36,614 bases of DNA from Gemmatimonadales bacterium (GCA_041599395.1 JBFHWR010000003.1:1-36614), one strand, 5' to 3'; numbered from the stretch's first letter, positions 2,056-22,916 are shown. The notes: generated by a model from the letters alone, not told the origin. Translations and numbers: made by a program.

Positions 2056-3117
2056 CTACACCTCTAATCCAATCCTCTCGAGCCGGTACGACCCGTTGAG
2101 CACCCGGTCCCACCACCACTGGTTTACGAGATACCATTCAACGGTTTTTCGGAGCCCTCTCTCAAACGGCTCCACCGCCTTCCAGCCCAATTCGGTTTCG
2201 ATCCGAGTTGAATCGATTGCGTATCGCCGATCGTGCCCAGGTCTGTCGTCGACCTGACGAATTAGCTGAACGTAGCTTCCCCGACCTTCTCGCGGACGAA
2301 GTTCGTCTAGCAACACACAAAGACCCCGGATCACTGTTAGGTTGTCCCGACGACACCTCGCTCCAATGTTGTATACCTCGCCTATCCTGCCACGTTCGAG
2401 AACCGCGCGAAGTGCATCGACGTGGTCATCCACAAATATCCAATCCCGGATGTGCTTCCCATCCCCATAGAGCGGGATCGGTTTGCCTGACAGCGCCTGC
2501 AGGATCACGTGGGGGATGAGTTTTTCTGGAAACTGGAACGGGCCGAAGTTGTTGGAGCAGTTCGTGGTCACCACGGGAAGGCCGTACGTATGATGCCAGG
2601 CCCGAACTAGGTGGTCGGCAGCTGCCTTCGTCGCGGCATACGGCGAGTTCGGTGCATATCGGGCTCGCTCGTCCGCCTCAACGCCTGCTCCGACACTCCC
2701 GTACACCTCGTCCGTTGAGACATGCAAGAACCGGAAGCGTGACCCTTCGGCTGAGCCCAAGTCACGCCAGTATCGAGTGCTGACCTCGAGAAGCATCCGA
2801 GTGCCGTCGACGTTCGTGCGCACAAACTGCGCGGGCGTGTCAATTGAACGGTCAACGTGGCTCTCGGCGGCAAGATGCATGACCGCTTCGGGACGGTAGT
2901 TCGCGAAAACATCTCCCAGCGCGTCGCCATCCGCGATGTCGAGGTGCACAAAGTGATACGAGGGCGATTGCTCAACGGTCAGAAGTGAATCCAAATTTCC
3001 GGCATAGGTCAGCGCGTCCACGTTGACCACGCAGGGGGTGCCCACCCCAACCAATTTCCGAACAACCGCAGATCCGATGAAGCCAGCTCCTCCAGTGACC
3101 AGCACCCGCTTGAACAT
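2056..3117 (-). CDS. rmlB: dTDP-glucose 4,6-dehydratase
   Basis: VTGGAGFIGS, DALTYAGN, HLAAESHVDRS, STDEVYG, PNSPYAATK, DRPGHDRRYA motifs; strong SD (AGGAGG). Confidence 0.97.
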   Translation of the reverse strand: MFKRVLVTGGAGFIGSAVVRKLVGVGTPCVVNVDALTYAGNLDSLLTVEQSPSYHFVHLDIADGDALGDVFANYRPEAVMHLAAESHVDRSIDTPAQFVRTNVDGTRMLLEVSTRYWRDLGSAEGSRFRFLHVSTDEVYGSVGAGVEADERARYAPNSPYAATKAAADHLVRAWHHTYGLPVVTTNCSNNFGPFQFPEKLIPHVILQALSGKPIPLYGDGKHIRDWIFVDDHVDALRAVLERGRIGEVYNIGARCRRDNLTVIRGLCVLLDELRPREGRGSYVQLIRQVDDRPGHDRRYAIDSTRIETELGWKAVEPFERGLRKTVEWYLVNQWWWDRVLNGSYRLERIGLEV

Positions 3118-3172
3118 CCACCCCCTCCTATTGACCGTTCAAAGCCGTAAAGGCTCCTCCACCTGCGTCGGC

Positions 3173-4519
3173 TTATTGCCTAGTCACTCCTTCCATGGGA
3201 CGACGCGCGACGACCGCGTAGAAAGGAAACGGTCGAATCCCGAGGATCTTCGTGGAAAGAAGTGATGCTAGAACGTTCTGGAGCACCAAGGCGACTGCAC
3301 TCGCCGAAGCTGCACCCATGATTCCGTATGGAGGGATCAGGAGGACGCAGGCGACGCCATAGGCGACAGCCGCGATGCTCGTCGCGAGCCACAGCGCCCG
3401 ATCGTTGTCGGTCATCATCAGCAAGTACCCCACCGACCCCACAACAACACTGACGTACTGTGCAACGGCCATCACACGCAATGCGCCGGCCGCGACGACG
3501 AATTCAGATCCAAACAATCCCATCACCAGCTCGGGCACCAGAACGCAGGGGAGAAGCAACGGTGCCGCAGCGAGGGATGTGTACTTGGCTGACTTCCCTG
3601 CCAAATGGGCCAGTCCACGCATATCGCCGCGGTGAAAGAGCACGGCGAAGCGAGGCGCTAGAATGGCGTTAGCGGCAAGCAACACTGATCCGACGAGGAG
3701 CGACGTCCTCCAGGCAACCGCAAATTCGCCAACCTCGGCGGCGGGTCGCCACAGTCCGAGCAGGAGGGGACCAAACCATGCCATGCTGTAGTTGATCAGC
3801 GATACCCAGAAGAGAGGCCGCGCCGCACGTGCCAATCCCCAATGCTCGCCGCTGTTGGTTCTGGGCGCGGCCGCCAGCGCGGGCGTGAGGCGCCACGAGA
3901 AGAACGCGAGGAGAGCAGCAAGCACTGCACCAAGCGTATAGGCCGCCGCCGCGGAATCGGCGCTTCCCCACTCTCCCAACCACAGCAGTGTCGCGGTTGC
4001 GCACAGCGGCAAGGCAACGCTTCGAAAAAACTGCGCTTCGCGAACGCGTTCGATGCCACGGAGCAGCTCAGCGTGAAGGAAGAGGAGCGCATGGGCGCCA
4101 ATGCCAACTGCCAACCACTTCAGCGGCAGCGTGAGTTCTGGTTTGCCGAACACCAACCTGCTCACCCCGCTCGCGCCAAGATACACTACGACGGTCAATA
4201 TGACGGAAGCGGCAGCGACCAGCGTGGTTCCTGAACGTGCGGTCCGCCGGACAGCAGACCACCTGGTATCTGCTGCTTGCTGAGCGACCCTTCGCAGCAC
4301 AACATTGTCCAAGCCGAGGCGGCTCACTGTGCTCGCCCCCGCCAGGACGGCGAGTCCGATGAAGATCAGGCCCGTTGCGGCAGCACCAACGACGCGGGCA
4401 AGCACCAGGCTGTACACGAACGACGCCACCGCTCCAAAGCCAAGGAGTAGAAAGACGAAGAACGCTTCCGTGCTGATTCCAAGGGCTAGTCGGCGATCGA
4501 CGAACTTCACGCGAGGCAA
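3173..4519 (-). CDS. wzx: Wzx-type oligosaccharide flippase (MOP superfamily)
   Basis: Many TM segments; LARVVG, LLLGLWRPAAEVGEF, ILAPRFA, LLIPPYGIMGAA motifs typical of polysaccharide flippases; cluster context. Confidence 0.88.
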   Translation of the reverse strand: MPRVKFVDRRLALGISTEAFFVFLLLGFGAVASFVYSLVLARVVGAAATGLIFIGLAVLAGASTVSRLGLDNVVLRRVAQQAADTRWSAVRRTARSGTTLVAAASVILTVVVYLGASGVSRLVFGKPELTLPLKWLAVGIGAHALLFLHAELLRGIERVREAQFFRSVALPLCATATLLWLGEWGSADSAAAAYTLGAVLAALLAFFSWRLTPALAAAPRTNSGEHWGLARAARPLFWVSLINYSMAWFGPLLLGLWRPAAEVGEFAVAWRTSLLVGSVLLAANAILAPRFAVLFHRGDMRGLAHLAGKSAKYTSLAAAPLLLPCVLVPELVMGLFGSEFVVAAGALRVMAVAQYVSVVVGSVGYLLMMTDNDRALWLATSIAAVAYGVACVLLIPPYGIMGAASASAVALVLQNVLASLLSTKILGIRPFPFYAVVARRPMEGVTRQ

Positions 4520-4550
4520 GCGACACTCCGCAGGTCATGAGCATACCGCA

Positions 4551-5450
4551 CTAGTCTTGCCACGCCTTCCACGGAGTCCGCCGCCCAATCAGGGACTCCA
4601 GTAATCGCACGTGGTCTCCGTAATACCGGGTCAGCAGCGCCCGAGTCTCCGGGCCGATCGAATCAGGAACGCTCCGCTGGACATTCCACTCGGTGTCGAG
4701 CCAGAACCCAACGGCGCGACGGGTCTGCGCCGGGACGACGGCTCGCGCGATGCGTCTCGATGCCCGATACCAGAGCTTCTGTTGCATGCTCTCGGACCGC
4801 GCCTCTCCTCCAACGTTGAATCGCGTTCCAAGGACCGACACGTGAAAGTCCTCGTCGACCCCGAGGAACTGAAACACCGAGCGCACAACGGCCTCACCCT
4901 CGTGGGCGAGATCCTCGAGAAAAATGACACACATTCGCTCATGTCCGAACGTATCAAAGAACGGTTCGAGCTGTCGTCCATATTCTCCAAGTGCCAGGAT
5001 GTCCGTATTCTCATCCAACGTCGTTCTCACCGTCGATGCCGCAGCCGCCTGCCTGGCCACTGCCTGGTCGAAGGAGTCCGCGAAGAAGCCCCGTCTTCGC
5101 GACATGCGGTAATGGGAGTGTGCACGAGCAATGGGATCGCGGAGAATAGCCACTAACTTCACGAACGGGCAGTGCGCCCGAATATGGGCCGCAACATTGG
5201 GCGTGAACATGTAACGGGGTGACGCCTCTCCCCAGATCTGCTGCTCACTCGCCCGAGAGAAATACGCTGAAAGGTACGATTCGATCCCGAGGCGGACCCT
5301 CTCCGGATCTGACCAGAAGTTGGCTTCTTTCTCGGGCGGCATAAAGATGTTTGGGTGAGACGCCAAGTATCTCGAGAGAGACGTCGTGCCCGCTTTTTGA
5401 GCACCAATGATCAAGAAATCTGGACGCGCGCATTCCATGGCTGAGGTCAC
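4551..5450 (-). CDS. PAPS-dependent sulfotransferase (Sulfotransfer_1/3 family)
   Basis: PDFLIIGAQKAGTTSL (5'-PSB loop), KEANFW, GEASPRY, LRDPIARAHS (3'-PB). Start set at GTG 5450, overlapping the upstream stop (GTGA); ATG 5438 is an alternative. Confidence 0.93.
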   Translation of the reverse strand: MTSAMECARPDFLIIGAQKAGTTSLSRYLASHPNIFMPPEKEANFWSDPERVRLGIESYLSAYFSRASEQQIWGEASPRYMFTPNVAAHIRAHCPFVKLVAILRDPIARAHSHYRMSRRRGFFADSFDQAVARQAAAASTVRTTLDENTDILALGEYGRQLEPFFDTFGHERMCVIFLEDLAHEGEAVVRSVFQFLGVDEDFHVSVLGTRFNVGGEARSESMQQKLWYRASRRIARAVVPAQTRRAVGFWLDTEWNVQRSVPDSIGPETRALLTRYYGDHVRLLESLIGRRTPWKAWQD

Positions 5451-6187
5451 TGATTCGAAAAACAGGCGCGGAGGGCTGATAACCGCTCCACTGCTCTCTT
5501 CCCCGAGCGCCAGTTCTCGGACGGCCAACCGTGCCGTACACAGAGCGTGGCCAATGCAGGCTCCGGACAGACGGCGACCGGCTGACCCACCTGTCGTAGC
5601 AGTGGAGCATCAACAGCGCTATCAGCATAAAACGCGATCTGTCCCGTCGTGAAACCAGTAGCGGACGCAATGGACAACACACGCCGCGCTTTTTCCTCTC
5701 CAACACAGTCGCTTCCGTCGAGGATCCCCTGGAACCGCTGCTCGCTATCGAAGGCGATCTCGGTGGCGACGACGTCATCGAAACCCAGGATGTCCGCAAT
5801 ATGGCGGGCGTAGAACGCTGGGGCCCCTGTGGCGAGAAGGACCGTGTCACGCCGCCGCCGATGCCATGCTATGCGATCAACGGCCACCCTCCGCGTAAAC
5901 CGCTCAGTAACCAACCGTGCAAAACGTCGACCGATCACGTCGATCTCGTTTGATCGCAGTCCCCGGAGCGACTCCAAACACAACAGCCTGAGGTCATGGC
6001 GGTGACTAATTCCAAGTTTCTTGGCGATCGAGCCAAACGCCAGCCTCGGTAGTTGACTCTTCGGATACCGCCAAAGCCTCCGCCAGAAAAACAGTTTCAC
6101 AGTCTCCGACCCCACCACCGTGCCATCCAGATCCATCACCGCGAGCACCGCGCGGGAGCCGGTCATGCTGACCACCTCTGGCCCCAT
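5447..6187 (-). CDS. HAD-IB family phosphatase
   Basis: All four HAD motifs: DLDGT, LATG, EEK, YADSAVD; ends with PVAVCP. Confidence 0.9.
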   Translation of the reverse strand: MGPEVVSMTGSRAVLAVMDLDGTVVGSETVKLFFWRRLWRYPKSQLPRLAFGSIAKKLGISHRHDLRLLCLESLRGLRSNEIDVIGRRFARLVTERFTRRVAVDRIAWHRRRRDTVLLATGAPAFYARHIADILGFDDVVATEIAFDSEQRFQGILDGSDCVGEEKARRVLSIASATGFTTGQIAFYADSAVDAPLLRQVGQPVAVCPEPALATLCVRHGWPSENWRSGKRAVERLSALRACFSNQ

Positions 6188-6188
6188 C

Positions 6189-7214
6189 TCATGTGTGGTG
6201 AAACCACGATTCCACCGATCCCGCGTGGCGGTCTCTCCGTCGCATCAAGATCCTGCGCTTGCGCAGTCCACTCGGTACCGTCTTCGCCACTGCGGCGAGC
6301 GCACCGAGATTGTAGGGCTCCATGAACAGCAGCCAGAGAAGTGCTCGCACCTCACCTACCAGCAGCCAGATCCCGTCTTGCAAGGGACCCCTCGGGCGAG
6401 CGTTCTTGAGCAACATGAGCCGGTGATTGCGAAAGGCGTAGTACTGCTGCATTGGACTCAGCCCGTTCCGCCCCGTAACCGCGCCGCGCCGGGTGGTCCG
6501 ATCAACGATTCCGGTTCCTCGAACGTGGTACGCGACGGCGCGCGGCACATAGGCACACGACCACCCGAGCAGCCTGAGCCTCCAGCAAAGATCTACGTCC
6601 TCTTTGTACATGAAGAACTGCTCGTCAAACACCTCACCCTCAATCGCCGCGTCATCAAGCGCCTCCCGACGCAGCATCATACAATGCCCGGTAACACCAA
6701 AGACCTCACCACCCTCTTCAAACTGTCCCTCGTCCTTCGAGCCACAGCCTCGATCTAAGACCCGCCTGGTACGCGTGCACATCAGTCCCGTAGAGTCCAC
6801 GATACCCGTGCCCGCTCGCTCCTTCGGATCCCATTGCAAGGTTTTCCCGCAAACAGCAGCGATCCTCGTCGAGCTGACGATGGGCTCCACGGCAGCCGCG
6901 ACAAAACCGGGGTCGAGAACAACATCCGGATTCAAAATGAGCACGCACGCGCTCTTCGTCAGTCCTATGCCGGCATTCGCGCCGAATCCGAAACCCCCAT
7001 TGTGCATGCTTGCCAAGACGACCACTCCCGGATACGTCCGGGCGACGAATTCCGTCGACCCATCGTGAGACGCATTGTCCACAAAGACCACTTCATCAAA
7101 CGGCTTCGTTTGACGATGGAGCGCGTCGAAACAGTCCCGCAAATACGAGAGACTATTGAAGCCAATCACCACTGCCGCAACACTCAACTCGCTGTCGCGT
7201 CGGTCACGATTCAT
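6189..7214 (-). CDS. GT2 glycosyltransferase (WbbL/rhamnosyltransferase-like)
   Basis: VDNASHDGS, NGGFGFGANAG, LNPD, FMYKEDVDLCWRL. ATG at 7214 overlaps the upstream TGA (ATGA). Confidence 0.93.
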   Translation of the reverse strand: MNRDRRDSELSVAAVVIGFNSLSYLRDCFDALHRQTKPFDEVVFVDNASHDGSTEFVARTYPGVVVLASMHNGGFGFGANAGIGLTKSACVLILNPDVVLDPGFVAAAVEPIVSSTRIAAVCGKTLQWDPKERAGTGIVDSTGLMCTRTRRVLDRGCGSKDEGQFEEGGEVFGVTGHCMMLRREALDDAAIEGEVFDEQFFMYKEDVDLCWRLRLLGWSCAYVPRAVAYHVRGTGIVDRTTRRGAVTGRNGLSPMQQYYAFRNHRLMLLKNARPRGPLQDGIWLLVGEVRALLWLLFMEPYNLGALAAVAKTVPSGLRKRRILMRRRDRHAGSVESWFHHT

Positions 7215-7822
7215 CGCCAGCGCTGCTCCGGTGCATTCCTCTGTTTGCAGTAGTCGAGGAAGCGCGCATAGTCGTGGGAATCCCGTGACCACGGGAACGA
7301 GAGATTTCGCAACTGAAAGACGGCGATGTCCGCAGTCACTCGCGAGGTTGAATACATTTGCGTGAGAACCGCCACGAGCACAGCGTCCCGCTTGACGCCT
7401 TGACGCTGGAGCCGACGCAGCAGTTCAATCATCGTTGCACCGGTGTCGAGCGAGTCATCAATAACGACGGGTCTCTTCGGTGCCGGCTCAAGCGACCCAA
7501 CAACCTGACGCCGAGAGAGCGCGCGGTAGAGGCCAGTGGCCATCTCCATGCGCCGAAGAAATTGCTTGCCAGAGTGGGGGAGATGACGAAGCGGCACCAT
7601 GCGCTTGAGTCCCGTCAACGGACGGGTGATTCGGATCGTGGACACCGGAAGGCCGAGCGCTTCACCGACGATGAGCGCCGGCATCACGCCCCCCGTGGCG
7701 ATTCCCAAAACGCCATCTGCGTCAAAGCCACTCTCACTCACCGCGGCGGCCAGCTGCAGCGACGCTCTGTACGCCTCATCGAAATCGAGCGTCTCGATCC
7801 GCACCTCCGAGCCCGATGTCAA
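7211..7822 (-). CDS. Type I phosphoribosyltransferase
   Basis: VLGIATGGVMPA PPi loop and VVIDDSLDTGATM PRPP-binding motif; FPW near the C-terminus. TTG at 7822 overlaps the upstream TGA (TTGA). Confidence 0.88.
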   Translation of the reverse strand: MTSGSEVRIETLDFDEAYRASLQLAAAVSESGFDADGVLGIATGGVMPALIVGEALGLPVSTIRITRPLTGLKRMVPLRHLPHSGKQFLRRMEMATGLYRALSRRQVVGSLEPAPKRPVVIDDSLDTGATMIELLRRLQRQGVKRDAVLVAVLTQMYSTSRVTADIAVFQLRNLSFPWSRDSHDYARFLDYCKQRNAPEQRWR

Positions 7823-9132
7823 CTTGTCGCTCCTACGCGTCGACCGCGCAGGGGTCCCGGCCGGTCCGCGGCCACCGCGACTATGCCCACGATCACCCAG
7901 AAGTACACCTGGTATATCCAATCGCCCAGAAACAGATAGGACAGCTGGGCGATCAAGACCGCCTCACATGCCGGTGCAACCCAGTTTTTGTGCTCCCTGC
8001 CGTGGCGCGCTGCCTCGTGGACCCGTCGCCAGACCAGGCTCAGGAACACGAGGAACCCTCCCAGGGCAACAATGCCGCTCTCGGACCACAGGCGTAGATA
8101 GGCGTTGTGCGGCGCTCGGTCTCCCTTCCCCCGTCCGTGGTACTTACCAGCGCCCTGGCCGATGAGCGGACTGTCGCCGATCGACTCCAGCGTCTGGTTG
8201 AAGTTCCGCAAGCGTAACGGAGTGGTGTTGCTCATGATGAGCGGAGGTTCTCCAAAGAAATCTCGGATGGTGACCTGTTGCTGATCGGGTGACAGGGCCA
8301 CCTTGACCCGATCGCGGACTGGCGCGAAGAGAAGGGGCACGGCAACCATGCCGAGGAGCACGAGATGTGGCCGCCACCCCTTTGAGCGTGCGGCCAAGAC
8401 CATCACGCCGACGATGGTTGCAAGCCAGGCACCTCTCGAATACGAAAGCACGAGCGCTACGACGAGAAGGATCAGCATCACACCCCACAACACGACGGGA
8501 ACCGTGCGGCGCGCGCCGAACAGCAGCCGCCCCAGCATCAGGAGGATCGCAACGCTGAAGAGATAGGCGCCGGTATTTGTTGCGGGATTCACGTTACCTG
8601 GGTTTGCACGCCATGCAGCGCCCGTTGCGTACTGATAGAGCGCCTGGATCGCCAAGGCACAGGCGACCGCGACAAGCCATGGGACCATTCGGCGGGCGGA
8701 CTGCCACGAGGAGAGCGTGCTGACAATCAAGACGTAAATCGCGACGTACACCACGGCCTCAGCGACCACCCCCATCGCCACCCCCGGGTCTTTCGCGACA
8801 TTTGCGGAGAAGCCCACTGCAAGCACCATGAATCCCAACGCAAAGCCACCGGCTCGCACGACTCGTGTCCCGGCTCCCGGAAGCTTTCCGGACCGCCACG
8901 CATAGGCAGCCGCGACCGCGATCGGAACGAGAGCGGCCATCATCAGCGGAATCTGCATCCTGCCAACGGTGATTCGCCCCCACCAAAAAAACGAAGTGAA
9001 CCACGTCAACACGAAGATCCCCCACAACAACTCAAAGAACCGATCTGCACCGCGCGGTGAGTCAGGCAGGAAGGATGGGTCGGGATAGTCGAGCCCGACA
9101 CCGCGCGGAACGGTCACGAGATGCCGGCTCAC
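7819..9132 (-). CDS. wzy: Wzy_C / O-antigen ligase-family membrane protein, likely the polymerase
   Basis: Multi-TM; LSYSRGAW, PLIGQGAG, PHNAYLRLWSESGIVAL motifs; clustered with wzx, wza and wzc. Confidence 0.82.
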   Translation of the reverse strand: MSRHLVTVPRGVGLDYPDPSFLPDSPRGADRFFELLWGIFVLTWFTSFFWWGRITVGRMQIPLMMAALVPIAVAAAYAWRSGKLPGAGTRVVRAGGFALGFMVLAVGFSANVAKDPGVAMGVVAEAVVYVAIYVLIVSTLSSWQSARRMVPWLVAVACALAIQALYQYATGAAWRANPGNVNPATNTGAYLFSVAILLMLGRLLFGARRTVPVVLWGVMLILLVVALVLSYSRGAWLATIVGVMVLAARSKGWRPHLVLLGMVAVPLLFAPVRDRVKVALSPDQQQVTIRDFFGEPPLIMSNTTPLRLRNFNQTLESIGDSPLIGQGAGKYHGRGKGDRAPHNAYLRLWSESGIVALGGFLVFLSLVWRRVHEAARHGREHKNWVAPACEAVLIAQLSYLFLGDWIYQVYFWVIVGIVAVAADRPGPLRGRRVGATS

Positions 9133-10004
9133 ACTTCGTTGCCGACTCTCCGGAGGTAGTCACCGTACTCACTACCGGGATACTCCGAGGCGATGTTGAG
9201 CAGCTGCTGCCGGTCGATGTAGCCACAGCGTAAGGCGACCTCTTCAATGCAGGCGATCTTGAGCCCCTGTCTGCGTTCTATGGTCCGGATGAGATTTGAT
9301 GTTTCGAAGAGTGAATCCGGCGTCCCCGCATCCAGCCAAGCATGTCCGCGGCCGAGGAGTTCGACTTCCAATGCGTCGTTCTCGAGATACGCGTTGTTCA
9401 CCTCGCCAATCTCCAGTTCCCCCCTCGCTGATGGCTTGAGTCCCTTGACGATGTCGACCACCCCCGCGTCATAGAAGTACAAGCCGGTGACCGCATAGTG
9501 GGAACGCGGTTTCTGCGGCTTTTCCACGATTCTGCATGGTTGACCGTGAGGATCGAACTCGACGATGCCGTAGCGCTTCGGGTCGTCGACGTAATAGGCA
9601 AAGATGGTGGCTCCGACCCGGCGTTTGCTCGCCGCTCGCAACCGATTTGTCAGTCCGTCACCGTAAAAGATGTTATCGCCCAGCACGAGCGCGGCTCCCT
9701 GGCCAGCCAGGAACCCCTCCGCTAGCAAGAACGCTTGTGCGATGCCATCCGGCTGCGGCTGCACGGCGTAGCTCAGCGCGATTCCCCATTGCGATCCATC
9801 TCGCAAGAGCTTTTGAAACAGGGGTTGGTCGTCCGGGGTTGAAATGACCAGAATGTCCCGGAGCCCCGCGAGCATCAGCGTGGTCAGCGGATAATAGATC
9901 AGCGGTTTGTCGTAAACGTTGAGCAGTTGCTTGCTCACAACACTCGTGAGTGGCCAGAGTCTGGTCCCCTGACCACCGGCGAGCACGATGCCCTTCGTGA
10001 TCAA
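9129..10004 (-). CDS. rmlA: Glucose-1-phosphate thymidylyltransferase
   Basis: GIVLAGGQGTRLWPLT, SKQLL.VYDKPLIYYPL, LVLGDN, EKP, SARGELEI, WLDAGT. Confidence 0.97.
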   Translation of the reverse strand: MITKGIVLAGGQGTRLWPLTSVVSKQLLNVYDKPLIYYPLTTLMLAGLRDILVISTPDDQPLFQKLLRDGSQWGIALSYAVQPQPDGIAQAFLLAEGFLAGQGAALVLGDNIFYGDGLTNRLRAASKRRVGATIFAYYVDDPKRYGIVEFDPHGQPCRIVEKPQKPRSHYAVTGLYFYDAGVVDIVKGLKPSARGELEIGEVNNAYLENDALEVELLGRGHAWLDAGTPDSLFETSNLIRTIERRQGLKIACIEEVALRCGYIDRQQLLNIASEYPGSEYGDYLRRVGNEV

Positions 10005-11797
10005 AGCCGCTGACCCCCGGTGAGCGCGTGGGCACGGACAGTCGGCGGCTTGGCGCCCTCCGGCGCCTTGGGGTTCGCCACAGCTCCGAGGTAGTCGAGG
10101 TCCGTGATGATATCGCTAGCACCTTTGGCCAGCACGATGACCTCGGCGCTGCTGCGATAGGGAACAAAGCTCACCCGCTCTCGAAGTCCCGAGTCATCGT
10201 AATCCCGCAGCTCGGCGCGGAGCACCGAGATGTTCTTGTCGCTTGCCAAGACTCTGACCTGACGAGGCTCTTCCGAGAGTCGCTTGGAGATCCGCCTCCA
10301 CGAACTTCGCAGGCGCAGCGCGCCGCGCTGGTCAAGAGCCACCAGGACATACGGATCATCTGCAGGACTGCTACCCGTGTGGCTCGCGGGTGTCGCGGCT
10401 TCCGGCGACCCACGCAATCGCGATATCACCGTGAGCGCGAACACCGCGGTTTCAAACAGCAGTACGGCATCGAGCAGCAGCGATCGATGACTGATGTAGA
10501 AGAGGTCGTATTCAATGCTGTCATGAATTTCGAGGCCTTGCCGGTCGGCGCTCAGTTGCCACACGCCAGTGATCCCCGGTTTGACAACCAGGCGCCGCCT
10601 TTGAATAGTCGAGTAACCTTCAACGAAAAACGGCATCTCAGGTCTTGGCCCCACGAGACTCATGTCTCCGCGAAGCACATTCAAGAGTTGCGGCAGTTCA
10701 TCGAGGCCGGCAGCTCGCAAAAAGCCCCCGACACGCGTGACCTGCCGGTCGCTCAGCGTGCTGGACGATTGGTACGGATTCGTGTCAATGCGAAGTGAGC
10801 GGAACTTGAGGATAACAAACCGGCGGCCGCTCTTCCCAACCCGCTGCTGCCGAAAGAGCACCGGGCCTTCAGACTCGAAGCGAATGGCTATCGCGATCAT
10901 CACCCACAAGGGTGCGGTCACGACGAGACCCGTCATCGCCACGGTGATGTCGAGGATCCGCTTGGCAATCCTATATCCCCAATGCGGATGAACGTCAGCG
11001 AGCCGAAGTACTGGAATCGCACCGACGCTCTCAACGACAAGTTCGTCAGCACGTGCGTTAGCCAGCTCCGGGGCAATCCCCCACCGCAGGTTCTGGATAC
11101 GCATCTCGCCAAGTCTGGAGACCACATCGTGCTCATCGGCGGGTGAGCTTATCAGGACCTCCGTCACGTTGTTCTCGCGCACGACATCAGCCAAATCGGC
11201 CACGCGACCAAGCAGAGGAACTGCGATCTGCCTGGAGGTTGATCGATCCACTCGAAAGCAAACTTCGGCTGCGTTGGGGACGAAATCGTCAACAAACCCG
11301 ACCAACACTCGGCCGGCTTCGGGCGCCTGCACGATCTTTTTCATGAGCAGCCGTCCCGTTTCGTTGCAACCGCACACCAGTGTCCGATGTCGACGTCTGC
11401 CCGGCCAGTGAACCCGCGCACGGACTTCACCCATGAGGCGGCGCTCGAGCAGCAACGCGGGCACGATGGATGCTGTGGCCACCCCAACGAGAGCGCGTTG
11501 CCCATCCAACCCTCCTACCAAGAACAACACAGCAAGAAACAACGAGGCCGCAAGTGCAGCGCCTTCGAGCGTGGACCGTAATTCAAGCAGGTTCAGCACA
11601 GTATTCTGGGGACGGTAGAGTCCCATGCGGGCAAACGTGGCGACGACGATGAACGACAAGAGGGACGTTCGCAAAACAACGTTCCCGACCCCCACAAACT
11701 CATGGGTTGCGGTAATCACGAACGTCGCCCCAAACGCTACAACGACGGCTATGACATCCGCGGCAGCTCGAATGGCTACAGGGCGGTTCGCTACCAT
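10001..11797 (-). CDS. Initiating polyprenyl-phosphate sugar-1-phosphate transferase (WcaJ/WbaP-like) with C-terminal extension
   Basis: 4 N-terminal TMs, CoA-binding-like domain (GFVDD), KRILDI, KFRS, LDELPQLLNVLRGDMSLVGPRPE, KPGITG. Confidence 0.92.
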   Translation of the reverse strand: MVANRPVAIRAAADVIAVVVAFGATFVITATHEFVGVGNVVLRTSLLSFIVVATFARMGLYRPQNTVLNLLELRSTLEGAALAASLFLAVLFLVGGLDGQRALVGVATASIVPALLLERRLMGEVRARVHWPGRRRHRTLVCGCNETGRLLMKKIVQAPEAGRVLVGFVDDFVPNAAEVCFRVDRSTSRQIAVPLLGRVADLADVVRENNVTEVLISSPADEHDVVSRLGEMRIQNLRWGIAPELANARADELVVESVGAIPVLRLADVHPHWGYRIAKRILDITVAMTGLVVTAPLWVMIAIAIRFESEGPVLFRQQRVGKSGRRFVILKFRSLRIDTNPYQSSSTLSDRQVTRVGGFLRAAGLDELPQLLNVLRGDMSLVGPRPEMPFFVEGYSTIQRRRLVVKPGITGVWQLSADRQGLEIHDSIEYDLFYISHRSLLLDAVLLFETAVFALTVISRLRGSPEAATPASHTGSSPADDPYVLVALDQRGALRLRSSWRRISKRLSEEPRQVRVLASDKNISVLRAELRDYDDSGLRERVSFVPYRSSAEVIVLAKGASDIITDLDYLGAVANPKAPEGAKPPTVRAHALTGGQRL

Positions 11798-11813
11798 CCG
11801 CGCCGTCTTCCCC

Positions 11814-12503
11814 TCAGATACCGAACGCCACGATGGCCCCGACGGCCGAGATCAGCGCCCCGACGAGCACTGCGCTGTTTCGGGACAGCCAGCTTGTCTT
11901 CGGAACGTACACTTGGTCTCCCGAATGCAGCGTCGCAGCAACGGAACGGCTGACATCCAAGTTTGCCTCGACGGTTTGACCGTCGCGAATCAATCTGACC
12001 CGATTGAGATTCCCTCGCTCCGAGGCCCCGCCCGCTAACGCGATGATGTCATCCAGCGTCATCGTCGGGTCCACGAGGTAGAGCCCGGCGTCTCGGACCT
12101 CACCCAACACGCGCACGCGTCGCAGGTAAAACACTTGCACTGATTGGTTCCGCATCCGATCCTCGTACTCTCGAACCAGCTGCTGCTTGACTGACGCTGC
12201 GGGCCCGTCGGTCAGCGTCCGCGCCCCGAGCAAGGGTAGGGCAGCAGCACCAGCCTCATCGATTCTGTATTCACCATTGAGAGCCCTGTCCCGGGAGAAG
12301 GAAAGGCGAATCGCGTCGCCAGCCCGCAAGGGTAGTCCTTCCGGTTCCGCCGCCGTGCGAACGGCGGCATCGTTGGCGGACGACGTTCCGCGGCTCGCGC
12401 ATGCCGCCAGCACGAAACACGCGACGAGCCACGGCCCTCGAGACCAGAGGCGTCTGGTCCTCGGATCCGGAACCCGCCGTCTGAACCCGCGTTCAGGATT
12501 CAC
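11814..12503 (-). CDS. wza: Polysaccharide export lipoprotein (Wza/OPX family, Poly_export + SLBB)
   Basis: Lipobox LAAC, LRAGDAI, VRVLGEVRDAG, ALAGG, LHSGDQVYVP; hydrophobic C-terminal helix. Confidence 0.85.
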   Translation of the reverse strand: MNPERGFRRRVPDPRTRRLWSRGPWLVACFVLAACASRGTSSANDAAVRTAAEPEGLPLRAGDAIRLSFSRDRALNGEYRIDEAGAAALPLLGARTLTDGPAASVKQQLVREYEDRMRNQSVQVFYLRRVRVLGEVRDAGLYLVDPTMTLDDIIALAGGASERGNLNRVRLIRDGQTVEANLDVSRSVAATLHSGDQVYVPKTSWLSRNSAVLVGALISAVGAIVAFGI

Positions 12504-14898
12504 GCGAGTAGGCCCGGTAGCTGGAGGGAAGACTGACGTCGTTGAGCACGATTCCTACCGTGTGCGCCCCAGCCCGTTCGAGCCGCTCGAGGGTGAACTC
12601 GAGAGCAGTCGAGTCCGTCCTTCCCGCACGTACCACCAGCAGGACCGATTGAACACGGGCTGCGATCGCGGCCGAATCAGTGACCACGTTCAATGGAGGG
12701 GTGTCGATCACGACCAGATCGAAACGGTCTTCCATCTTTTTCAAGAGAGTCCGAAACCGGTCGCTTTCGAGAAGTTCGGCTCCGTGCGACGTCACCGCAC
12801 CGGCTGGCAGCACGCAGAGCGGATTCCCGGCTGATCCTACCTCCAGGATCGGGACGTGACGAGACACCTGAGTATCAGATGTCATCAACTCGGTGAGGCC
12901 TGGTACGTCCAGCGGAATTCTCAGGAAACGGGAAACGCCACGAGCGCGCAGGTCCGCATCGATGAGAAGGGTTCGGACACCATGACTCGCTCTCGCGATG
13001 GCGAGGTTGCACGCCGTGTACGTCTTGCCTTCTTCGCGTCCCGCACTTGTCACCGCCACCGAGCGGACGTCCTTGCCTCCGCCGCGACCGAGAAATCGGA
13101 GGTCGGCCGAAAGCGTCCGAAACGCCTCGAGTGCCAGCTGGCGCTCGGCCGTCCACGCTGGCGAGACCACCGCGGCCTTGTGGCCGTTCGTTGCGGGGAC
13201 CCGAACCGAAATAACAGGACCCGGCTTCTTGAGGGCGGGAATCATGCTCAGAACCGGAATACCGGTCTCTTCCTCGACCGCGGTTCGTTCTCGCACACTG
13301 GTGTCTACCGATTCCCTCCACAGCCCTAGCACGAGGCCAAACCCAGAAGCGAGAAGCAAACCCAGTGCGAAGGCGATGGGCTCGTTGGGTCGCGAATGCT
13401 CGAACGGCAGCGACGCCCGGTCGACTACGCGTACACTCGGCAGCTCCACGGCCTGCGCGATTTCCGCCTCCTGCAGACGCGTCTGGAGAAAGCCGTACAG
13501 ATCCTCGAGTAACGAGACCTGCCGCTCGAGCCGGGCAGTCTCCAGTTGCTGCAGCGGAATGGCAGCGAGCACCGCGCCGGAATTCTCGAGGGCCTCATCC
13601 AGCGAAGTAATTTGAGCCGCCAGCGCCTGCTCGTACCCAACGGCGATTGCTTTGATCTGCCCTTCTGTATCGGCGATCCACTGGTCAAGCGCCGCGAGCT
13701 CCACGTCCTGATCCGAGCGACGGACCGCCAGGTCGTTCCGCCGATTGTCCAGCTCGACCAGGTTGGCGACGAGTTCCGTGACGATCTGGTTTTGGTTCTT
13801 GAGGAACGTCGGAAAGCTCACGAGATCTCGGTATTTGCCGCTGCCCCGCGCCTCGTCACCTTCAATCTGAGTGATCAACGCGACTAACGACGCTCGTTCT
13901 GCTCGCAGTTGCTCGCGTGAGGCCCACAGTTGGGTGTTCTGACGAACTTCCTCGGCAGCCCGTGCGCCAAGTGCCACTGCCCTCGCGCGTTGCGCATACG
14001 AGCGCATGCTGTCCTCCACCGCGGCGAGACGCTGACTGACGAGATCTGCTTGATCGGCAAGGAACTCCGCGGCAGCCGTGGCCTCCGCTTTCTGAAGTTC
14101 TGCGCGCAGCGTGACGTAACTCTGGGCGAGGGCGCCACACAACCATTGCGCTCCCTCGGCCGTCCGAGCCTCACACGTCAGACCGATGAGGTCAGCATCC
14201 CGTTGGACGGCGTCAACGGTAATCTGTTCCTGGACTTCCTGCACTGCCTGAGAGAACGGAATGATCGTCAACCGAAAGGTGACAGCAGAGTCTGTTACCG
14301 GAAAAAGGACCGCGACATTACCAAAATAGAGGTGCTCCGCTGGCGCGGCCGTCGCTAACGTGTCCCCTGACCGTCCAACCACCGTCGTCCGGCCCCCCGC
14401 ATCACGCGACAGCTCGTACGTCCCAGCTCGCGCATCCGATCCCGCCACAAACGACGTGAACACTTCAGACGGGCGTTGGTCGCCATTCGGTGTCCTGACG
14501 GTGACATGCAGATCACCTCTGTCGACCACCGGCTCCACCACACGCCGACTCCTGACCAGCGCTACCTCGGTCTCGCGCGTTGCGAGACGACCAAGGCGAT
14601 CGAGCACGGCGAGAGCCGACACCTCGCTGCGCGAGGTCTGCTGGTGCTCAACCAGGAAGCTCGCCGACGACTCGTAGGTCTTCGGCATGAACAGGACGAA
14701 GGCCAAAACCGCCACCATGACAGCGGTGAACCCTCCGAGCATCGCCCACTTGCGACGAACCAGGAACTGACCGATCTGAGGCCTGTCGCGGCGCGGCTTG
14801 CCGTGTCCAGAACCTGTCGTGCTCACCCAAGTTCGTGGCAAGCGAAGGGGAGCAATCGGTCCCCTATCCCGAACTAATGGTTGGTCTTGGTTGTCCAC
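12493..14898 (-). CDS. wzc: Polysaccharide co-polymerase / tyrosine autokinase (Wzc/GumC)
   Basis: Two TMs flanking a coiled-coil periplasmic region; Walker A (TSAGREEGKT), A' (LLIDADLR), B (VVIDTPP); GIVLN. Confidence 0.93.
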   Translation of the reverse strand: MDNQDQPLVRDRGPIAPLRLPRTWVSTTGSGHGKPRRDRPQIGQFLVRRKWAMLGGFTAVMVAVLAFVLFMPKTYESSASFLVEHQQTSRSEVSALAVLDRLGRLATRETEVALVRSRRVVEPVVDRGDLHVTVRTPNGDQRPSEVFTSFVAGSDARAGTYELSRDAGGRTTVVGRSGDTLATAAPAEHLYFGNVAVLFPVTDSAVTFRLTIIPFSQAVQEVQEQITVDAVQRDADLIGLTCEARTAEGAQWLCGALAQSYVTLRAELQKAEATAAAEFLADQADLVSQRLAAVEDSMRSYAQRARAVALGARAAEEVRQNTQLWASREQLRAERASLVALITQIEGDEARGSGKYRDLVSFPTFLKNQNQIVTELVANLVELDNRRNDLAVRRSDQDVELAALDQWIADTEGQIKAIAVGYEQALAAQITSLDEALENSGAVLAAIPLQQLETARLERQVSLLEDLYGFLQTRLQEAEIAQAVELPSVRVVDRASLPFEHSRPNEPIAFALGLLLASGFGLVLGLWRESVDTSVRERTAVEEETGIPVLSMIPALKKPGPVISVRVPATNGHKAAVVSPAWTAERQLALEAFRTLSADLRFLGRGGGKDVRSVAVTSAGREEGKTYTACNLAIARASHGVRTLLIDADLRARGVSRFLRIPLDVPGLTELMTSDTQVSRHVPILEVGSAGNPLCVLPAGAVTSHGAELLESDRFRTLLKKMEDRFDLVVIDTPPLNVVTDSAAIAARVQSVLLVVRAGRTDSTALEFTLERLERAGAHTVGIVLNDVSLPSSYRAYSRES

Positions 14899-15440: not shown

Positions 15441-16130
15441 TCACGCAACACTCTCCGCATAAACGTTTGCCACCGCAATCACACCCCCAGCATCCTCCAC
15501 CGGAACGAGAATGCGCCGATACCCGTCTCCCTCGAACCGGTCGAGGCGCTGCCAATGACCCGGAAGTAGCTCGGCGACGAAGAGCTTCGCGTTGACCTTC
15601 GGACCGGCGGGATCCCACGTGAGGGCCGGGAACCCATAGTCTGCACCCCAGCCCACGTGGGCCACGTGCCCGCGGACAAAGCCATCTCGCCAGGTGCCGG
15701 TAATATCCGCGATGACATGATGATTCGCTTCTCCAGGGGCAAGCGATCCGTAGATCGCGAGTTTGCGGGATGGAGAGCCGAGCAGCATATCGAGCGCGTA
15801 CTCGAGGGAGGAAACCAGGTCGGTCGACCGCCGTGGTGCTCCGTCAGCCGCAGTCCGGAGGGCCCGCTCCGCCTCGAGCATGCCCGGGACTGTCTCCGTC
15901 ATTCCTTCACCGGCCAACTCTGTCGATCGAACGGCGCTGACCAGGATACCGAGCGACGCTGCCAACCCTCCAGAGGAAGATCTCGCAGCGAGAGCGTCGT
16001 TCCCTGACGCATTCAAGGTAGTCAGCGCCCGCTCCAGATCTTCCCGAATCGCGCGCCGCCGCCACCAGACGGTTGACCCGGTGTCGCTCCGTCCATTCAC
16101 GTCGCCCAATCGCACATCACTACGCGCCAT
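15441..16130 (-). CDS. Gamma-glutamylcyclotransferase (AIG2-like) protein with N-terminal extension
   Basis: LAIYGSLAPGEANH, GFPAL, LDRFEGDGYRR. ATG 16130 overlaps the sat/cysC stop; start uncertain. Confidence 0.8.
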   Translation of the reverse strand: MARSDVRLGDVNGRSDTGSTVWWRRRAIREDLERALTTLNASGNDALAARSSSGGLAASLGILVSAVRSTELAGEGMTETVPGMLEAERALRTAADGAPRRSTDLVSSLEYALDMLLGSPSRKLAIYGSLAPGEANHHVIADITGTWRDGFVRGHVAHVGWGADYGFPALTWDPAGPKVNAKLFVAELLPGHWQRLDRFEGDGYRRILVPVEDAGGVIAVANVYAESVA

Positions 16131-17856
16131 CACTCCGACCCACCCCCACGTAACCTTCCCGTTCGGCATGCAGTATGATCTGGTGTGCCGCCTGCTCTGG
16201 ACTGACATCGCTCGTATCGATGACAATCTCGGCGTCGGTGGGCTCCTCGTACGGATCGGAGACGCCCGTGAACTGCGTAATGATCCCTGCCCTCGCCTTG
16301 GCATACAGTCCTTTTCGGTCCCGCTGCTCGCAAACCTCGACCGGGGTGGCGACGTGCACCAGCATGAACCCGCCTACCGGCGCAATCAGGTCCCGCACGT
16401 TTTTCCGAACCGAGTCGTACGGGGCAATCGGAGCACACAGCGCGATACCGCCGTTCTTCGTGATCTCCGACGCGACGTAGCCGATCCGCAGGATATTGAT
16501 GTCGCGATGTTCCTTGGAGAAGCCCAGTTCCGAAGAGAGATGTTTGCGTACAATGTCCCCGTCGAGCAGCGTAATTGGTCGGCCACCCATTTCAAGGAGC
16601 TTGACCAGGAGCGCTTTCGCAATCGTCGACTTTCCCGCCCCCGACAGTCCGGTGAAGAACACCGTAAATCCTTGTTTGTGCCTTGGCGGATGGCTGTTCT
16701 GCAGCTCGGTCGCCACTGCCGGAAAGGTGAACCATTCGGGTATGTCCCTTCCCTCAGATAAACGCGCGCGGAGTTCCGTCCCAGAGATCGAGAGCGCACG
16801 CATGCCTGGTGGTACCTCGTCTACGGGCACGTACTTATCGGCATCCTGGAGGTACACCATCAGCTTGAATGGGACCATTTCGACACACAGCTCGCTCTCG
16901 TAGCGCTTGAGCATTTCCTGTGCGTCGTAGGGACCGTAAAACGGCTCGCCATTGGTACGCAGTCCCGGTCCAGCGTGGTCGCGACCCACGATGAGGTGAG
17001 TGCACCCGTAGTTTTTCCGAATGATCGCGTGCCATACGGCCTCTCGCGGTCCCGCCATTCTCATTGCGAGGGGAAGGAGCGAGAGCATGGCTGTGTTCTT
17101 GGGGTAACGGGGTAACAATGCCTGATAACAGCGCACCCGGGTGTAGTGATCCACATCGCCAGGCCTGGTCAGCCCGACGACAGGGTGGATCAGCACGTTG
17201 GCCTCGACCTCCTTGGCCGCCCGCAGTGTCAGCTCCTGATGTGCACGGTGCATTGGGTTCCGCGTTTGGAACGCCACGATTCTTCGCCATCCGCGCCGCA
17301 GAAATTCGGCCCGGAGCGAGGCCGGCGTGTCACGGAACTCGCGGTAGTCGTAGTGCACCGGTGTTTCCACACCCTGGAGCCTACCGCCGACATAACATGG
17401 GTTGCTTTGCGTCAGGAGATATGCGGCGCCGGGATGCCCAGGATCAGTCGTGCCGAGTACTGCCTCCGCCTCCAAGCCTCGATTCGGTTGCCACACATCC
17501 TCGACATGGAGCGCCGCGAGCATTACTCCCTCGGGATCCCGGAGCGCGAGCATCGAGCCAGGCTGTAGTCCCAGGCCGGCCTTTTCGGTCACGTCTAGTG
17601 TGATCGGCACCGGCCAAAGCGTTCCGTTAGCGAGCCGCATCGACGTGCATACCGTTTCGTAGTCACGCCGGGTCATGAATCCGCAAAGTGGCGAGAAGGC
17701 GCCAGTCAACAGCAACTCGAGATCGCACACCTGCCTTGGAGTCAGGTCCCATGACGGCCAATCCCGAGACTGCGACTTGAGGCTCGCGGCCTTCTCGCCG
17801 TCAGCCATGAGGTTTCGGAGTTTGCCCCCATGGGGTGAGATCAAATGATCACTCAC
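16120..17856 (-). CDS. sat/cysC: Bifunctional sulfate adenylyltransferase / adenylylsulfate kinase (PAPS synthase)
   Basis: FQTRNPMHRAH, RKNYGCTH.IVGRDHAG, ISGTELR; kinase domain FFTGLSGAGKST, LDGD, RDRKGLY, FTGVSDPYEEP. Confidence 0.96.
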   Translation of the reverse strand: MSDHLISPHGGKLRNLMADGEKAASLKSQSRDWPSWDLTPRQVCDLELLLTGAFSPLCGFMTRRDYETVCTSMRLANGTLWPVPITLDVTEKAGLGLQPGSMLALRDPEGVMLAALHVEDVWQPNRGLEAEAVLGTTDPGHPGAAYLLTQSNPCYVGGRLQGVETPVHYDYREFRDTPASLRAEFLRRGWRRIVAFQTRNPMHRAHQELTLRAAKEVEANVLIHPVVGLTRPGDVDHYTRVRCYQALLPRYPKNTAMLSLLPLAMRMAGPREAVWHAIIRKNYGCTHLIVGRDHAGPGLRTNGEPFYGPYDAQEMLKRYESELCVEMVPFKLMVYLQDADKYVPVDEVPPGMRALSISGTELRARLSEGRDIPEWFTFPAVATELQNSHPPRHKQGFTVFFTGLSGAGKSTIAKALLVKLLEMGGRPITLLDGDIVRKHLSSELGFSKEHRDINILRIGYVASEITKNGGIALCAPIAPYDSVRKNVRDLIAPVGGFMLVHVATPVEVCEQRDRKGLYAKARAGIITQFTGVSDPYEEPTDAEIVIDTSDVSPEQAAHQIILHAEREGYVGVGRSDGA

Positions 17857-20638: not shown

Positions 20639-20690
20639 GGAGATTCCCCCTTCTCCATCGAATCTTTCCTTTGTAGCTTGTAAGGCTGTT

Positions 20691-21641
20691 ATGGCCGAAA
20701 TCTCCCTCCGATCGAGCAAGATGCTGCTGATGTCCGGTTCTGCCAACCGGGCCCTGGCGGAGGAAATCGCGAACTGCCTTGACCAGGCACTCTGTCGCGT
20801 GACCCTCCGGCGTTTCGCGGATGGAGAGATTTTCGTGAAGATCGACGAGAACGTGCGGGGGCAGGATGTGTTCATTATCCAGCCCACCAATCCGCCCGCG
20901 GAGAACTTGCTCGAGCTGCTGATCATGATCGATGCGGCCCGGCGGGCGAGTGCGGCGCGCGTCACGGCCGTTATCCCGTATTACGGATATGGCCGGCAAG
21001 ATCGGAAAGACGAGCCGCGGGTCGCCATCAGCGCGAAGCTCGTCGCCAACCTGGTGGTCACGGCGGGTGCTGATCGGGTCTTGGGAATCGACTTCCACCA
21101 GCATCAGCTTCAGGGGTTCTTCGATATTCCGGTGGATCACTTGTACGCGGCGCCCGTCTTTGCCGAGCACTATCGACAAAAGCGCATGGAGCGCCTCGTC
21201 GTCGTAGCGCCGGATGCCGGCTCGGTAAAAATCGCTCGTGGATTCGCCAAACGGCTCGACGCGTCGCTTGCGATCGTGGACAAGCGTCGTCCGTCGGCGA
21301 ACATCGCGGAGGTCCTGAACGTGGTTGGTGATGTCGCGGGACGCGACTGCCTGTTGGTGGACGACATGATCGACACGGCCGGAACCGTTGCAGAGGCGAT
21401 CCGCGTCCTCAGGACGCGCGGCGTGCGCGAAGTCTACTGTTGCGCGACGCACGCGCTCCTCTCCGGCCCGGCGGTCGATCGCCTCGCGGCGGTGGAAGCA
21501 ACCGAAATTGCCGTCACCAATACCATTCGGATTCCGGAGGATCGCGTCTTTCCAGCGCTCAAGGTCCTCTCGGTCGCGCCGCTGTTGGCGCGCGCGATTC
21601 ATTCGACGCACAGCGACCAGTCCGTGAGTTCGCTCTTCTAG
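20691..21641 (+). CDS. prs: Ribose-phosphate pyrophosphokinase
   Basis: FADGE, PYYGYGRQDRK, QLQGFF, PDAG, DKRR, VDDMIDTAGT. Start trimmed to ATG 20691. Confidence 0.97.
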   Translation: MAEISLRSSKMLLMSGSANRALAEEIANCLDQALCRVTLRRFADGEIFVKIDENVRGQDVFIIQPTNPPAENLLELLIMIDAARRASAARVTAVIPYYGYGRQDRKDEPRVAISAKLVANLVVTAGADRVLGIDFHQHQLQGFFDIPVDHLYAAPVFAEHYRQKRMERLVVVAPDAGSVKIARGFAKRLDASLAIVDKRRPSANIAEVLNVVGDVAGRDCLLVDDMIDTAGTVAEAIRVLRTRGVREVYCCATHALLSGPAVDRLAAVEATEIAVTNTIRIPEDRVFPALKVLSVAPLLARAIHSTHSDQSVSSLF

Positions 21642-21668
21642 AACGATGATTGACGTCAGGTACACACT

Positions 21669-22328: not shown

Positions 22329-22331
22329 GCG

Positions 22332-22908: not shown

Positions 22909-22916
<8 letters not shown>
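22332..22916 (+). CDS. pth: Peptidyl-tRNA hydrolase (apparent CTG start)
   Basis: In-frame (L/M)[22 protein letters not shown] lies upstream of the ORF-track start at 22404; [25 protein letters not shown]. Confidence 0.95.

Follow-up and report, generated by a model that had tools for sequence, protein, structure and literature searches.

What does a phosphoribosyltransferase that resembles the enzymes of purine salvage do in the middle of an exopolysaccharide operon? The question is raised by a 36,614-nucleotide stretch of a Gemmatimonadales bacterium genome (GCA_041599395.1, JBFHWR010000003.1:1-36614; hereafter, the window), where genes for a stand-alone type I phosphoribosyltransferase (PRT; 7211-7822, 203 aa, TTG start; PF00156, E 1.5e-10), a GT2 family glycosyltransferase (6189-7214, 341 aa; PF00535, E 7.8e-18) and a HAD-IB phosphatase (5447-6187, 246 aa; PF12710, E 2.5e-30) follow one another on the minus strand. 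How ribofuranose enters bacterial surface polysaccharides became clear only in 2022-2024, with the description of dual-domain enzymes that combine a glycan phosphoribosyltransferase (gPRT) with a phosphoribose phosphatase (PRP) and of lipid-linked three-component systems. Comparative genomics suggests that the PRT, GT2 and HAD of the window probably constitute a split module that adds ribofuranose from phosphoribosyl pyrophosphate (PRPP). Since its relatives almost always keep a phosphatase partner, we consider it most likely that the PRT attaches ribose to a surface glycan.

The three genes score above curated thresholds and are genuine, not chance open reading frames (ORFs). As the initial annotation had it, the interval between wzy and a sulfotransferase gene holds a PRT whose PRPP loop is intact, together with a GT2 and a HAD-IB phosphatase; the Pfam assignments of all three, and the NCBIfam assignment of the HAD, agree with this. 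The junctions read in the sequence are exactly those reported there: the PRT start overlaps the wzy stop (TTGA, 7822-7819), the start of the GT2, which is translationally coupled between PRT and HAD, overlaps the PRT stop (ATGA, 7214-7211), the GT2 stop and the HAD ATG (6187) are one base apart, and the sulfotransferase GTG overlaps the HAD stop (GTGA, 5450-5447), with an alternative in-frame ATG at 5437.

Phosphatase and glycan genes in the neighborhoods of the PRT family

The PRT family is rare: a HMMER search over 1.84 billion representatives recovered 340 proteins at E<=1e-3, of which 28 remain at 1e-10 and 4 at 1e-30. Neighborhoods were scanned in one genome per species with the six closest sequences as the query, which gave 51 loci (denoted by L and a number; L045 and L049 are on one contig); genes were called with a simple longest-ORF picker, and three per side were annotated with Pfam and local profiles. 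A phosphatase gene directly adjoins the PRT gene in 46 of these species-level loci, namely a PHP family gene immediately upstream (29 loci), a HAD-IB gene (PF12710) immediately downstream (12 loci) or a PRP-type HAD gene immediately downstream (5 loci). No phosphatase was found in the other five (L002, L006, L030, L042 and L046); the upstream flank of L006 is lost at a contig end. By our reading of the annotations, 44 of the 51 loci have a gene for glycan assembly no more than three called genes away from the PRT; such genes include Bac_transf, GT2, GT4, Wzy/EpsG, Wzx, Wzz, LicD, TagF-like, Stealth, LytR and exosortase genes.

The PRP-type partners are the most telling, as they belong to a family of experimentally established phosphoribose phosphatases and connect the PRTs to the characterized ribosylation systems. 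Three of them, in L023, L045 and L049, stand alone (235-259 aa), with CrpP of Bcs3 (E 1.6e-7, 1.7e-13 and 3.2e-10, respectively) and the PRP domain of the Thermobacillus composti ribofuranosyltransferase 7SHG as their best relatives among solved structures. The partners in L037 and L050 are full dual-domain ribofuranosyltransferases, and an enzyme of this kind is also encoded three genes away from the PRT in L009. The initial annotation had proposed that the two steps of ribosylation are carried out by separate small proteins; the linkage to phosphatase and glycan genes, together with the five PRP-type partners, supports this proposal, and the comparison of homologous neighborhoods suggested there turned out strongly positive on both counts. 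Nothing that could be computed here revealed what that annotation had named as contrary evidence, that is, action of the PRT on purine or pyrimidine bases, homologs unlinked to HAD or glycan genes, or a polymer devoid of ribose.

A different identity was considered for the PHP neighbor, namely a tyrosine phosphatase of the CpsB type, as found in Gram-positive capsule loci. This idea was rejected because the partners match PF02811 and PHP_C, and the PHP-PRT pair occurs also outside capsule loci and as a fusion. Among named families, the PHP partners show a weak resemblance to CehA/McbA, RNase AM and 3',5'-nucleoside bisphosphate phosphatase.

Several neighborhoods have features of their own. 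In Veillonellaceae (L001, L003, L004 and L005), the PHP-PRT pair is accompanied by LicD and a TagF-like transferase, and L005:4085-8638 adds an IspD/TarI-like cytidylyltransferase, a gene set that recalls the ribosyl-ribitol-phosphate logic of the Haemophilus influenzae type b capsule. In Bacteroidales, a GHL10-GT2-PRT-HAD string (L031, L036 and L044, at about 5300-9200 in each) is located outside any large polysaccharide locus. In a metagenome-assembled genome of Holdemanella (L040:3034-4788), a DarTG-like DarT-Macro pair directly precedes the PHP-PRT pair.

Fusions and phylogeny

Two fusions join the PRT to the products of its typical neighbors: protein P0134 consists of a PHP domain (residues 1-191) and a PRT domain (239-413), with the PHP half matching the profile of the partner PHP proteins at 1.5e-48, and L009:3837-5639 encodes a PRT fused to a GT2. 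No PRT-HAD fusion was detected among 72 profile hits (102-396 aa, all with PF00156 only) or 150 listed representatives, and the 30 nearest Atlas clusters likewise contain PF00156 only. A search for longer fused forms brought up one protein of 785 aa (P0152; PRTase-CE, PF00156 and PF01931), which is unrelated. In another protein, P0012 (432 aa), an AAA_33 kinase-like domain is fused to a PRT domain.

A tree was built from 57 PRT sequences: that of the window, those of the 51 genome loci and those of five metagenome loci. The type of partner tracks the PRT tree, to an extent that none of 200 label shuffles reached. The distribution of the PHP partners requires a single change; the PRP-partnered sequences form a clade (support 100/99) nested among the PHP-partnered ones, and the PRT of the window groups with the HAD-IB-partnered sequences. 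Since partner type follows phylogeny, a single transferase lineage has kept a phosphatase partner while swapping the family from which it is drawn, as expected if the partner merely removes the phosphate introduced by the transferase. On balance, we favor the view, held with only slightly more confidence than its negation, that these purine-PRT-like type I PRTs of about 200 residues are a further, separate lineage of glycan ribofuranosyltransferases that works with any phosphoribose phosphatase available, be it a PHP, a HAD-IB or a PRP-type HAD protein. The lineage spans Bacillota, Bacteroidota, Planctomycetota, Synergistota, Chloroflexota and Pseudomonadota.

Sequence and fold of the PRT

Scored as the longer 236-aa ORF, the PRT matches PF00156 with 41.1 bits (cut-off 26.3). 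It contains a canonical PRPP loop, VVIDDSLDTGAT (residues 119-130), an acidic stretch followed by T-G; in an alignment of 37 family members (A1), the loop is delimited as PVVIDDSLDTGAT (residues 118-130; 7433-7471, minus strand). Residues R67, K73, R90, D122, D123, G128, P177 and S179 are invariant in this alignment, and D126 and E93 are nearly so. Three of the invariant residues (R67, K73 and R90) and E93 lie in a basic helical insert of about 40 residues (approximately 67-105; 7508-7624, minus strand) that is specific to the family. The A1 profile matches archaeal purine PRTs in two pieces only, over profile positions 4-53 and 89-189; the short flexible catalytic loop that follows the second strand in purine salvage PRTs is not present in the PRT, which has the insert at this place. 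Given the two-piece alignment and an insert without counterpart, the PRT has a purine-PRT-like core in which the catalytic flexible loop has been replaced. The insert, with its R67, K73 and R90, probably closes over the pyrophosphate or the acceptor side of the site.

An AlphaFold2 model built on A1 (pLDDT 91.3) has the classical five-stranded alpha/beta PRT core, with helices at 70-75, 83-96 and 98-101 within the insert. The closest folds are those of the hypoxanthine-guanine-xanthine PRT of Sulfolobus solfataricus (4z1o; Z 17.0, root-mean-square deviation 1.9 A over 136 residues) and the purine PRT of Pyrococcus horikoshii (1vdm; Z 16.9), whereas CriT of Bcs3 (8a0c) ranks 42nd (Z 7.5, 3.9 A over 136 residues, for the catalytic part of CriT only). 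The profile comparison also points to a purine PRT (4trb, E 2e-22), and the C-terminal FPW motif of the PRT is common to archaeal purine PRTs. Neither Bcs3 nor 7SHG appears among the 20 matches of the PRT at E<=1 or among the best 60 of the 117 matches of the A1 profile. No membrane-spanning stretch was seen in the sequence or among the predicted helices and strands.

None of the curated NCBIfam salvage equivalogs reaches its cut-off with the PRT (the best scores 26 bits against a required 115), and among the purine equivalogs, xanthine PRT gives 21.3 bits against 138 and hypoxanthine-guanine PRT 18.3 against 181. The source genome, which is 83.9% complete, separately encodes Hpt (189.6 bits, above the cut-off). 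It also contains best matches to Upp, PyrR, PurF, ComF and Prs, the majority of which likewise pass their cut-offs. Judged from its sequence, the PRT therefore is not a housekeeping salvage enzyme. The source annotations name members of the family hypoxanthine or xanthine PRTs.

The HAD, the GT2 and the four-gene cassette

The phosphatase of the window matches the NCBIfam model of HAD-IB (TIGR01490) with 101 bits (cut-off 98.3). Its motif I, DLDGT (6119-6133, minus strand), supplies the predicted nucleophile Asp19 and acid/base Asp21, and D19, D21, T23, K166, D189 and D193 are invariant across 18 PRT-linked HADs. Neither CrpP nor the PRP domain of 7SHG is found among the 3 matches of the window HAD or the 23 matches (E<=1) of the profile of the HAD partners. 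The GT2 retains the DNAS, NPD and EDVD stretches, which we take to be the usual motifs of this family; a search of the PDB with its sequence was uninformative.

In the closest relative of the window locus, L059, the order PRT-GT2-HAD-sulfotransferase is retained, and all four genes are orthologous to those of the window (identities of 42, 40, 29 and 40%, respectively; E 1e-104 for GT2 and 1e-78 for the sulfotransferase). This locus, which also encodes Wzy, Wzx and Wzc, has a GC content of 36% versus about 60% in the window. In Marinobacter (L010), the order is sulfotransferase-GT2-PRT-HAD. The shared order in L059 and the arrangement in L010 indicate that the cassette of the window, which includes the sulfotransferase gene (Sulfotransfer_1, PF00685, E 8.4e-12; 4551-5450, or to 5528, minus strand), is a conserved unit.

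Among 80 metagenome loci, 69 have the PHP gene upstream of the PRT, four a HAD-IB gene directly downstream and one a HAD-IB gene two genes downstream; the 6 loci without a phosphatase nearly all break off at contig ends, and the counts are not independent because many contigs are near-copies of each other. In 300 other genomes of the phylum of the window, a tally that takes in the unpublished genome G057, there are only weak partial matches (best 2.1e-12, compared with 2.0e-60 for the window), and 5 of 401 sampled gammaproteobacterial genomes carry the PRT family. The distribution of the cassette is sporadic, as is usual for variable polysaccharide genes. Cultured carriers of the family include Salinibacillus, Geobacillus, Rossellomorea, Flavivirga and Marinobacter.

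Proposed mechanism and alternative explanations

In the proposed scheme, the PRT-GT2-HAD-sulfotransferase cassette would place ribofuranose on a lipid-linked repeat unit in two steps, within the Wzx/Wzy operon. In the first step, the PRT would bind PRPP through its acidic loop, with D122 and D123 followed by T127-G128 for the 5-phosphate, and would attach ribose-5-phosphate, in an inverting reaction, to a hydroxyl group of the glycan under construction. In the second step, the HAD-IB phosphatase would strip the 5-phosphate, with Asp19 as the nucleophile, Asp21 as the acid/base, and K166, D189 and D193 contributing. The GT2 would either add the neighboring sugar or act as a partner of the PRT, and the sulfotransferase would then act with 3'-phosphoadenosine 5'-phosphosulfate (PAPS) supplied by the nearby sulfurylase/kinase. 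Acceptor, product and the order of the steps are what we infer from the observed genes, motifs, fold and linkage to phosphatase and glycan genes.

Several observations weigh against ribosylation of a glycan by this module. The fold and profile of the PRT are nearest to purine PRTs, far ahead of CriT, with the FPW motif shared between them, and the nearest characterized proteins act on purine bases, hence the acceptor could still be nucleobase-like. The phosphatase of the window belongs to HAD-IB rather than to the PRP type, and none was seen in the five loci listed above. In L037, L050 and L009, the PRT comes on top of a classic ribofuranosyltransferase, as a second PRT with no evident need. 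Seven of the 51 loci (L012, L021, L026, L033, L035, L041 and L048) have no glycan gene within three genes, two of these being short contigs; in L012, the PRT-phosphatase pair stands alone between a chemoreceptor gene and acetate kinase, and in L035 it follows recR. Furthermore, of the four additional gammaproteobacterial loci, two lack a phosphatase, and in the other two (L153 and L155) there is only a protein with a DxD-type motif I near its start. These two proteins, encoded directly downstream of the PRT (L153:5143-5955, minus strand; L155:6528-7202), are homologous to each other (2e-22), have no Pfam hit and could represent a fourth type of phosphatase partner.

The purine-like core, the hypoxanthine or xanthine PRT annotations and the PRT-phosphatase pairs outside glycan loci (L012, L026, L035 and L048) would be accommodated if the PRT were a divergent enzyme for purines or another nucleobase and the phosphatase a nucleotidase, the pair making a nucleoside or salvaging a base in a pathway unrelated to glycans. 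However, the salvage cut-offs are not reached, the flexible loop has given way to the insert of the family, and the genome already possesses Hpt and Upp; moreover, the predominance of glycan loci, the five glycan-specific PRP-type partners and the fusion of PRT with GT2 are all at odds with this explanation, which is accordingly considered improbable. Somewhat less improbable, though still unlikely, is a route in which phosphoribosylation by the PRT takes place on a precursor, either soluble or lipid, instead of on the finished glycan acceptor, and the GT2 or another enzyme moves the dephosphorylated riboside into the polymer. Such a route would suit the GT2-PRT-HAD triads of Bacteroidota, which are self-contained outside large glycan loci (L031, L036, L039 and L044), and a PRT-GT2 fusion is what consecutive steps on one intermediate might call for; lipid-linked ribofuranose (Ribf) donors are indeed known from the systems described in PMC11127046. 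The PRT, however, is a soluble protein of 203 aa in which no membrane-spanning stretch was seen, the known lipid route needs UbiA-family enzymes and a GT-C transferase, of which the latter was not found in the operon, and PRP-type partners act on glycan-bound Ribf-5-phosphate in the characterized systems.

The division of labor could also differ in the second step, with the PRT adding ribose-5-phosphate that the polymer keeps and the HAD of the window doing something else, either clearing pAp (adenosine 3',5'-bisphosphate), the by-product of the sulfotransferase, or dephosphorylating a sugar-phosphate precursor. The HAD gene directly precedes the sulfotransferase gene in both the window and L059, its product belongs to HAD-IB and not to the PRP type, and the PHP partners weakly resemble a 3',5'-nucleoside bisphosphate phosphatase. 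Yet, what is constant in the family is the combination of PRT and phosphatase, not that of sulfotransferase and phosphatase: among the neighbors examined, the window, L059 and L010 are the only cases in which a sulfotransferase accompanies the PRT, and most of the 12 loci with HAD-IB after the PRT have none. This division of labor is therefore the least probable of the alternatives, and a split module in which the phosphatase completes the transfer of ribofuranose initiated by the PRT is the preferred explanation.

Organization of the operon and its surroundings

The exopolysaccharide operon is a single minus-strand unit (2056-14898). Transcription proceeds through genes for a Wzc-like chain-length/tyrosine-kinase protein (12493-14898; Wzz, GNVR, AAA_31), a Wza-like protein (11814-12503; SLBB, Poly_export) that forms with the former an export pair (11814-14898), an initiating phosphoglycosyltransferase (Bac_transf, 10001-11797; PF02397, E 1.1e-58), an RmlA-like nucleotidyltransferase (9129-10004; PF00483, E 1.1e-70), the Wzy-type polymerase (Wzy_C, 7819-9132; PF04932, E 7.3e-14), the PRT, GT2, HAD-IB phosphatase and sulfotransferase, a Wzx-type flippase (Polysacc_synt, 3173-4519; PF01943, E 2.8e-12) and an RmlB-like 4,6-dehydratase (2056-3117; PF16363, E 1.8e-82). 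With a flippase, a polymerase, an initiating transferase, and export and chain-length proteins in one operon, this is a Wzx/Wzy-dependent locus in which, the initiating enzyme aside, the GT2 is the only classical glycosyltransferase. A scan of the window for promoters and terminators detected nothing exceeding the shuffled background.

Just upstream of the operon, on the same strand, lies a gene for a fusion of a PUA-like domain, ATP sulfurylase and APS kinase (16120-17856; PF01747, E 1.7e-86; PF01583, E 3.3e-57). The fusion protein would furnish PAPS for the sulfotransferase of the window, as a dedicated supply for a sulfated polysaccharide. On its other side, the operon is flanked by a plus-strand gene for a right-handed beta-helix protein (245-1852), which may be a polysaccharide lyase or hydrolase.

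Some 13 kb away from the PRT gene, a PRPP synthetase gene (20625-21641) occurs in its usual cluster with ribosomal protein L25 and peptidyl-tRNA hydrolase, and is followed by a gene for a membrane H+-pyrophosphatase (region 20625-24972). Both enzymes touch the PRPP and pyrophosphate of the proposed reaction, although they probably are housekeeping ones. Farther along the window, a 602-aa ORF (27259-29067) with Dak2, FakA-like middle and DegV domains resembles a fusion of a kinase subunit with one that binds fatty acids, and a 1065-aa protein (29471-32668) combines PD40 beta-propeller repeats with an Omp85-type C-terminal domain.

Implications

If the proposed function is correct, many ribose-adding loci evade the PRP-domain marker because most members of the family pair with PHP or HAD-IB proteins. 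A widespread way of making ribose-containing surface polymers, coupled to sulfation in the window, would then be masked by annotations as hypoxanthine or xanthine PRT, and the interpretation of capsule, O-antigen and teichoic acid-like loci of gut Bacillota and Bacteroidota would change. The family would also provide a clear case of three unrelated phosphatases swapped behind one transferase, as well as a compact two-protein tool for glycoengineering. Because several carriers are in culture, the idea is open to direct testing.

Comparison with known systems

The two-step chemistry, in which Ribf-5-phosphate is transferred from PRPP to a sugar and a HAD phosphatase then removes the 5-phosphate, is established, according to the accounts available in PMC11127046, PMC10299916, PMC12096443 and PMC11231755, for the gPRT-PRP enzymes, Bcs3 and Cj1432. 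The first of these sources describes PRP domains as dephosphorylating glycan-bound Ribf-5-phosphate and as a bioinformatic marker for ribose-adding enzymes. The dual-domain ribofuranosyltransferases include those of Klebsiella pneumoniae O4/O7, 7SHG of T. composti, the CrpP-CriT enzyme Bcs3 of H. influenzae type b and Cj1432 of Campylobacter jejuni. The chemistry proposed here is identical to theirs, CriT has a PRTase-like core, and relatives of the window PRT directly adjoin PRP-type phosphatases. The window proteins, in contrast, are separate, the phosphatase belongs to HAD-IB (to PHP in most relatives), and the PRT is a canonical type I enzyme with a contiguous DD loop and no helical bundles; CriT, as described in PMC10299916, has three such bundles, for which a protein of 203 aa is too small.

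In the three-component pentofuranose systems, described in PMC11127046 as consisting of a UbiA-type PPPRS fused to a PRP, a flippase and a GT-C, the ultimate source of ribose is likewise PRPP and a HAD phosphatase takes part. Their membrane UbiA enzyme, lipid-linked donor and periplasmic transfer set them apart, none of these being present in the window operon. The 6-oxopurine PRTs (4z1o, 1vdm and xanthine-guanine PRT) share with the PRT of the window the fold, the PRPP loop and the FPW motif, and differ from it in lacking the basic insert, in belonging to the curated salvage models whose cut-offs the PRT misses, and in the glycan and phosphatase context of the latter.

A precedent for the GT2 comes from the Salmonella T1 antigen, where, as reported in PMC11294581, the ribofuranosyltransferase STM0726 associates in a complex with STM0725, a GT-A protein that is encoded next to it and needed along with it. 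The GT2-PRT-phosphatase triads and the PRT-GT2 fusion parallel this arrangement, with the difference that STM0726 is a classic PRP-gPRT enzyme; by analogy, a helper role is possible for the GT2 of the window.

Split and single-domain forms have counterparts as well, compared here by description only in the cases of WbaM and BtrL/BtrP. For the putative phosphoribosyltransferase WbaM of Escherichia coli O183/Shigella boydii type 10, a role in D-Ribf transfer to D-GlcA "has been confirmed" in the words of a review (PMC7685785); like the window PRT, it is a candidate phosphoribosyltransferase for Ribf transfer, whereas the window form is split, with the GT2 gene between those for PRT and HAD. In the biosynthesis of butirosin, according to PMC13707489, the separate phosphoribosyltransferase BtrL and phosphatase BtrP form an O-riboside from PRPP, the acceptor in this system and in that of neomycin being an aminoglycoside rather than a polysaccharide. 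The fragments of Bcs3 (CriT; CroT plus CrpP), as reported in PMC10299916, are inactive separately and make the polymer once combined. Thus, the claim of the initial annotation that the locus represents a different architecture for glycan ribosylation stands only in part: division of the two steps is already exemplified by BtrL/BtrP and the Bcs3 fragments, and WbaM is a precedent for the use of a putative phosphoribosyltransferase, but a stand-alone family with swappable phosphatases does depart from these forms. Literature searches found neither this stand-alone PRT family nor its partners of the PHP and HAD-IB types described. What was already known, then, is the two-step chemistry; what is new is a distinct, misannotated family of stand-alone transferases with interchangeable phosphatase partners.

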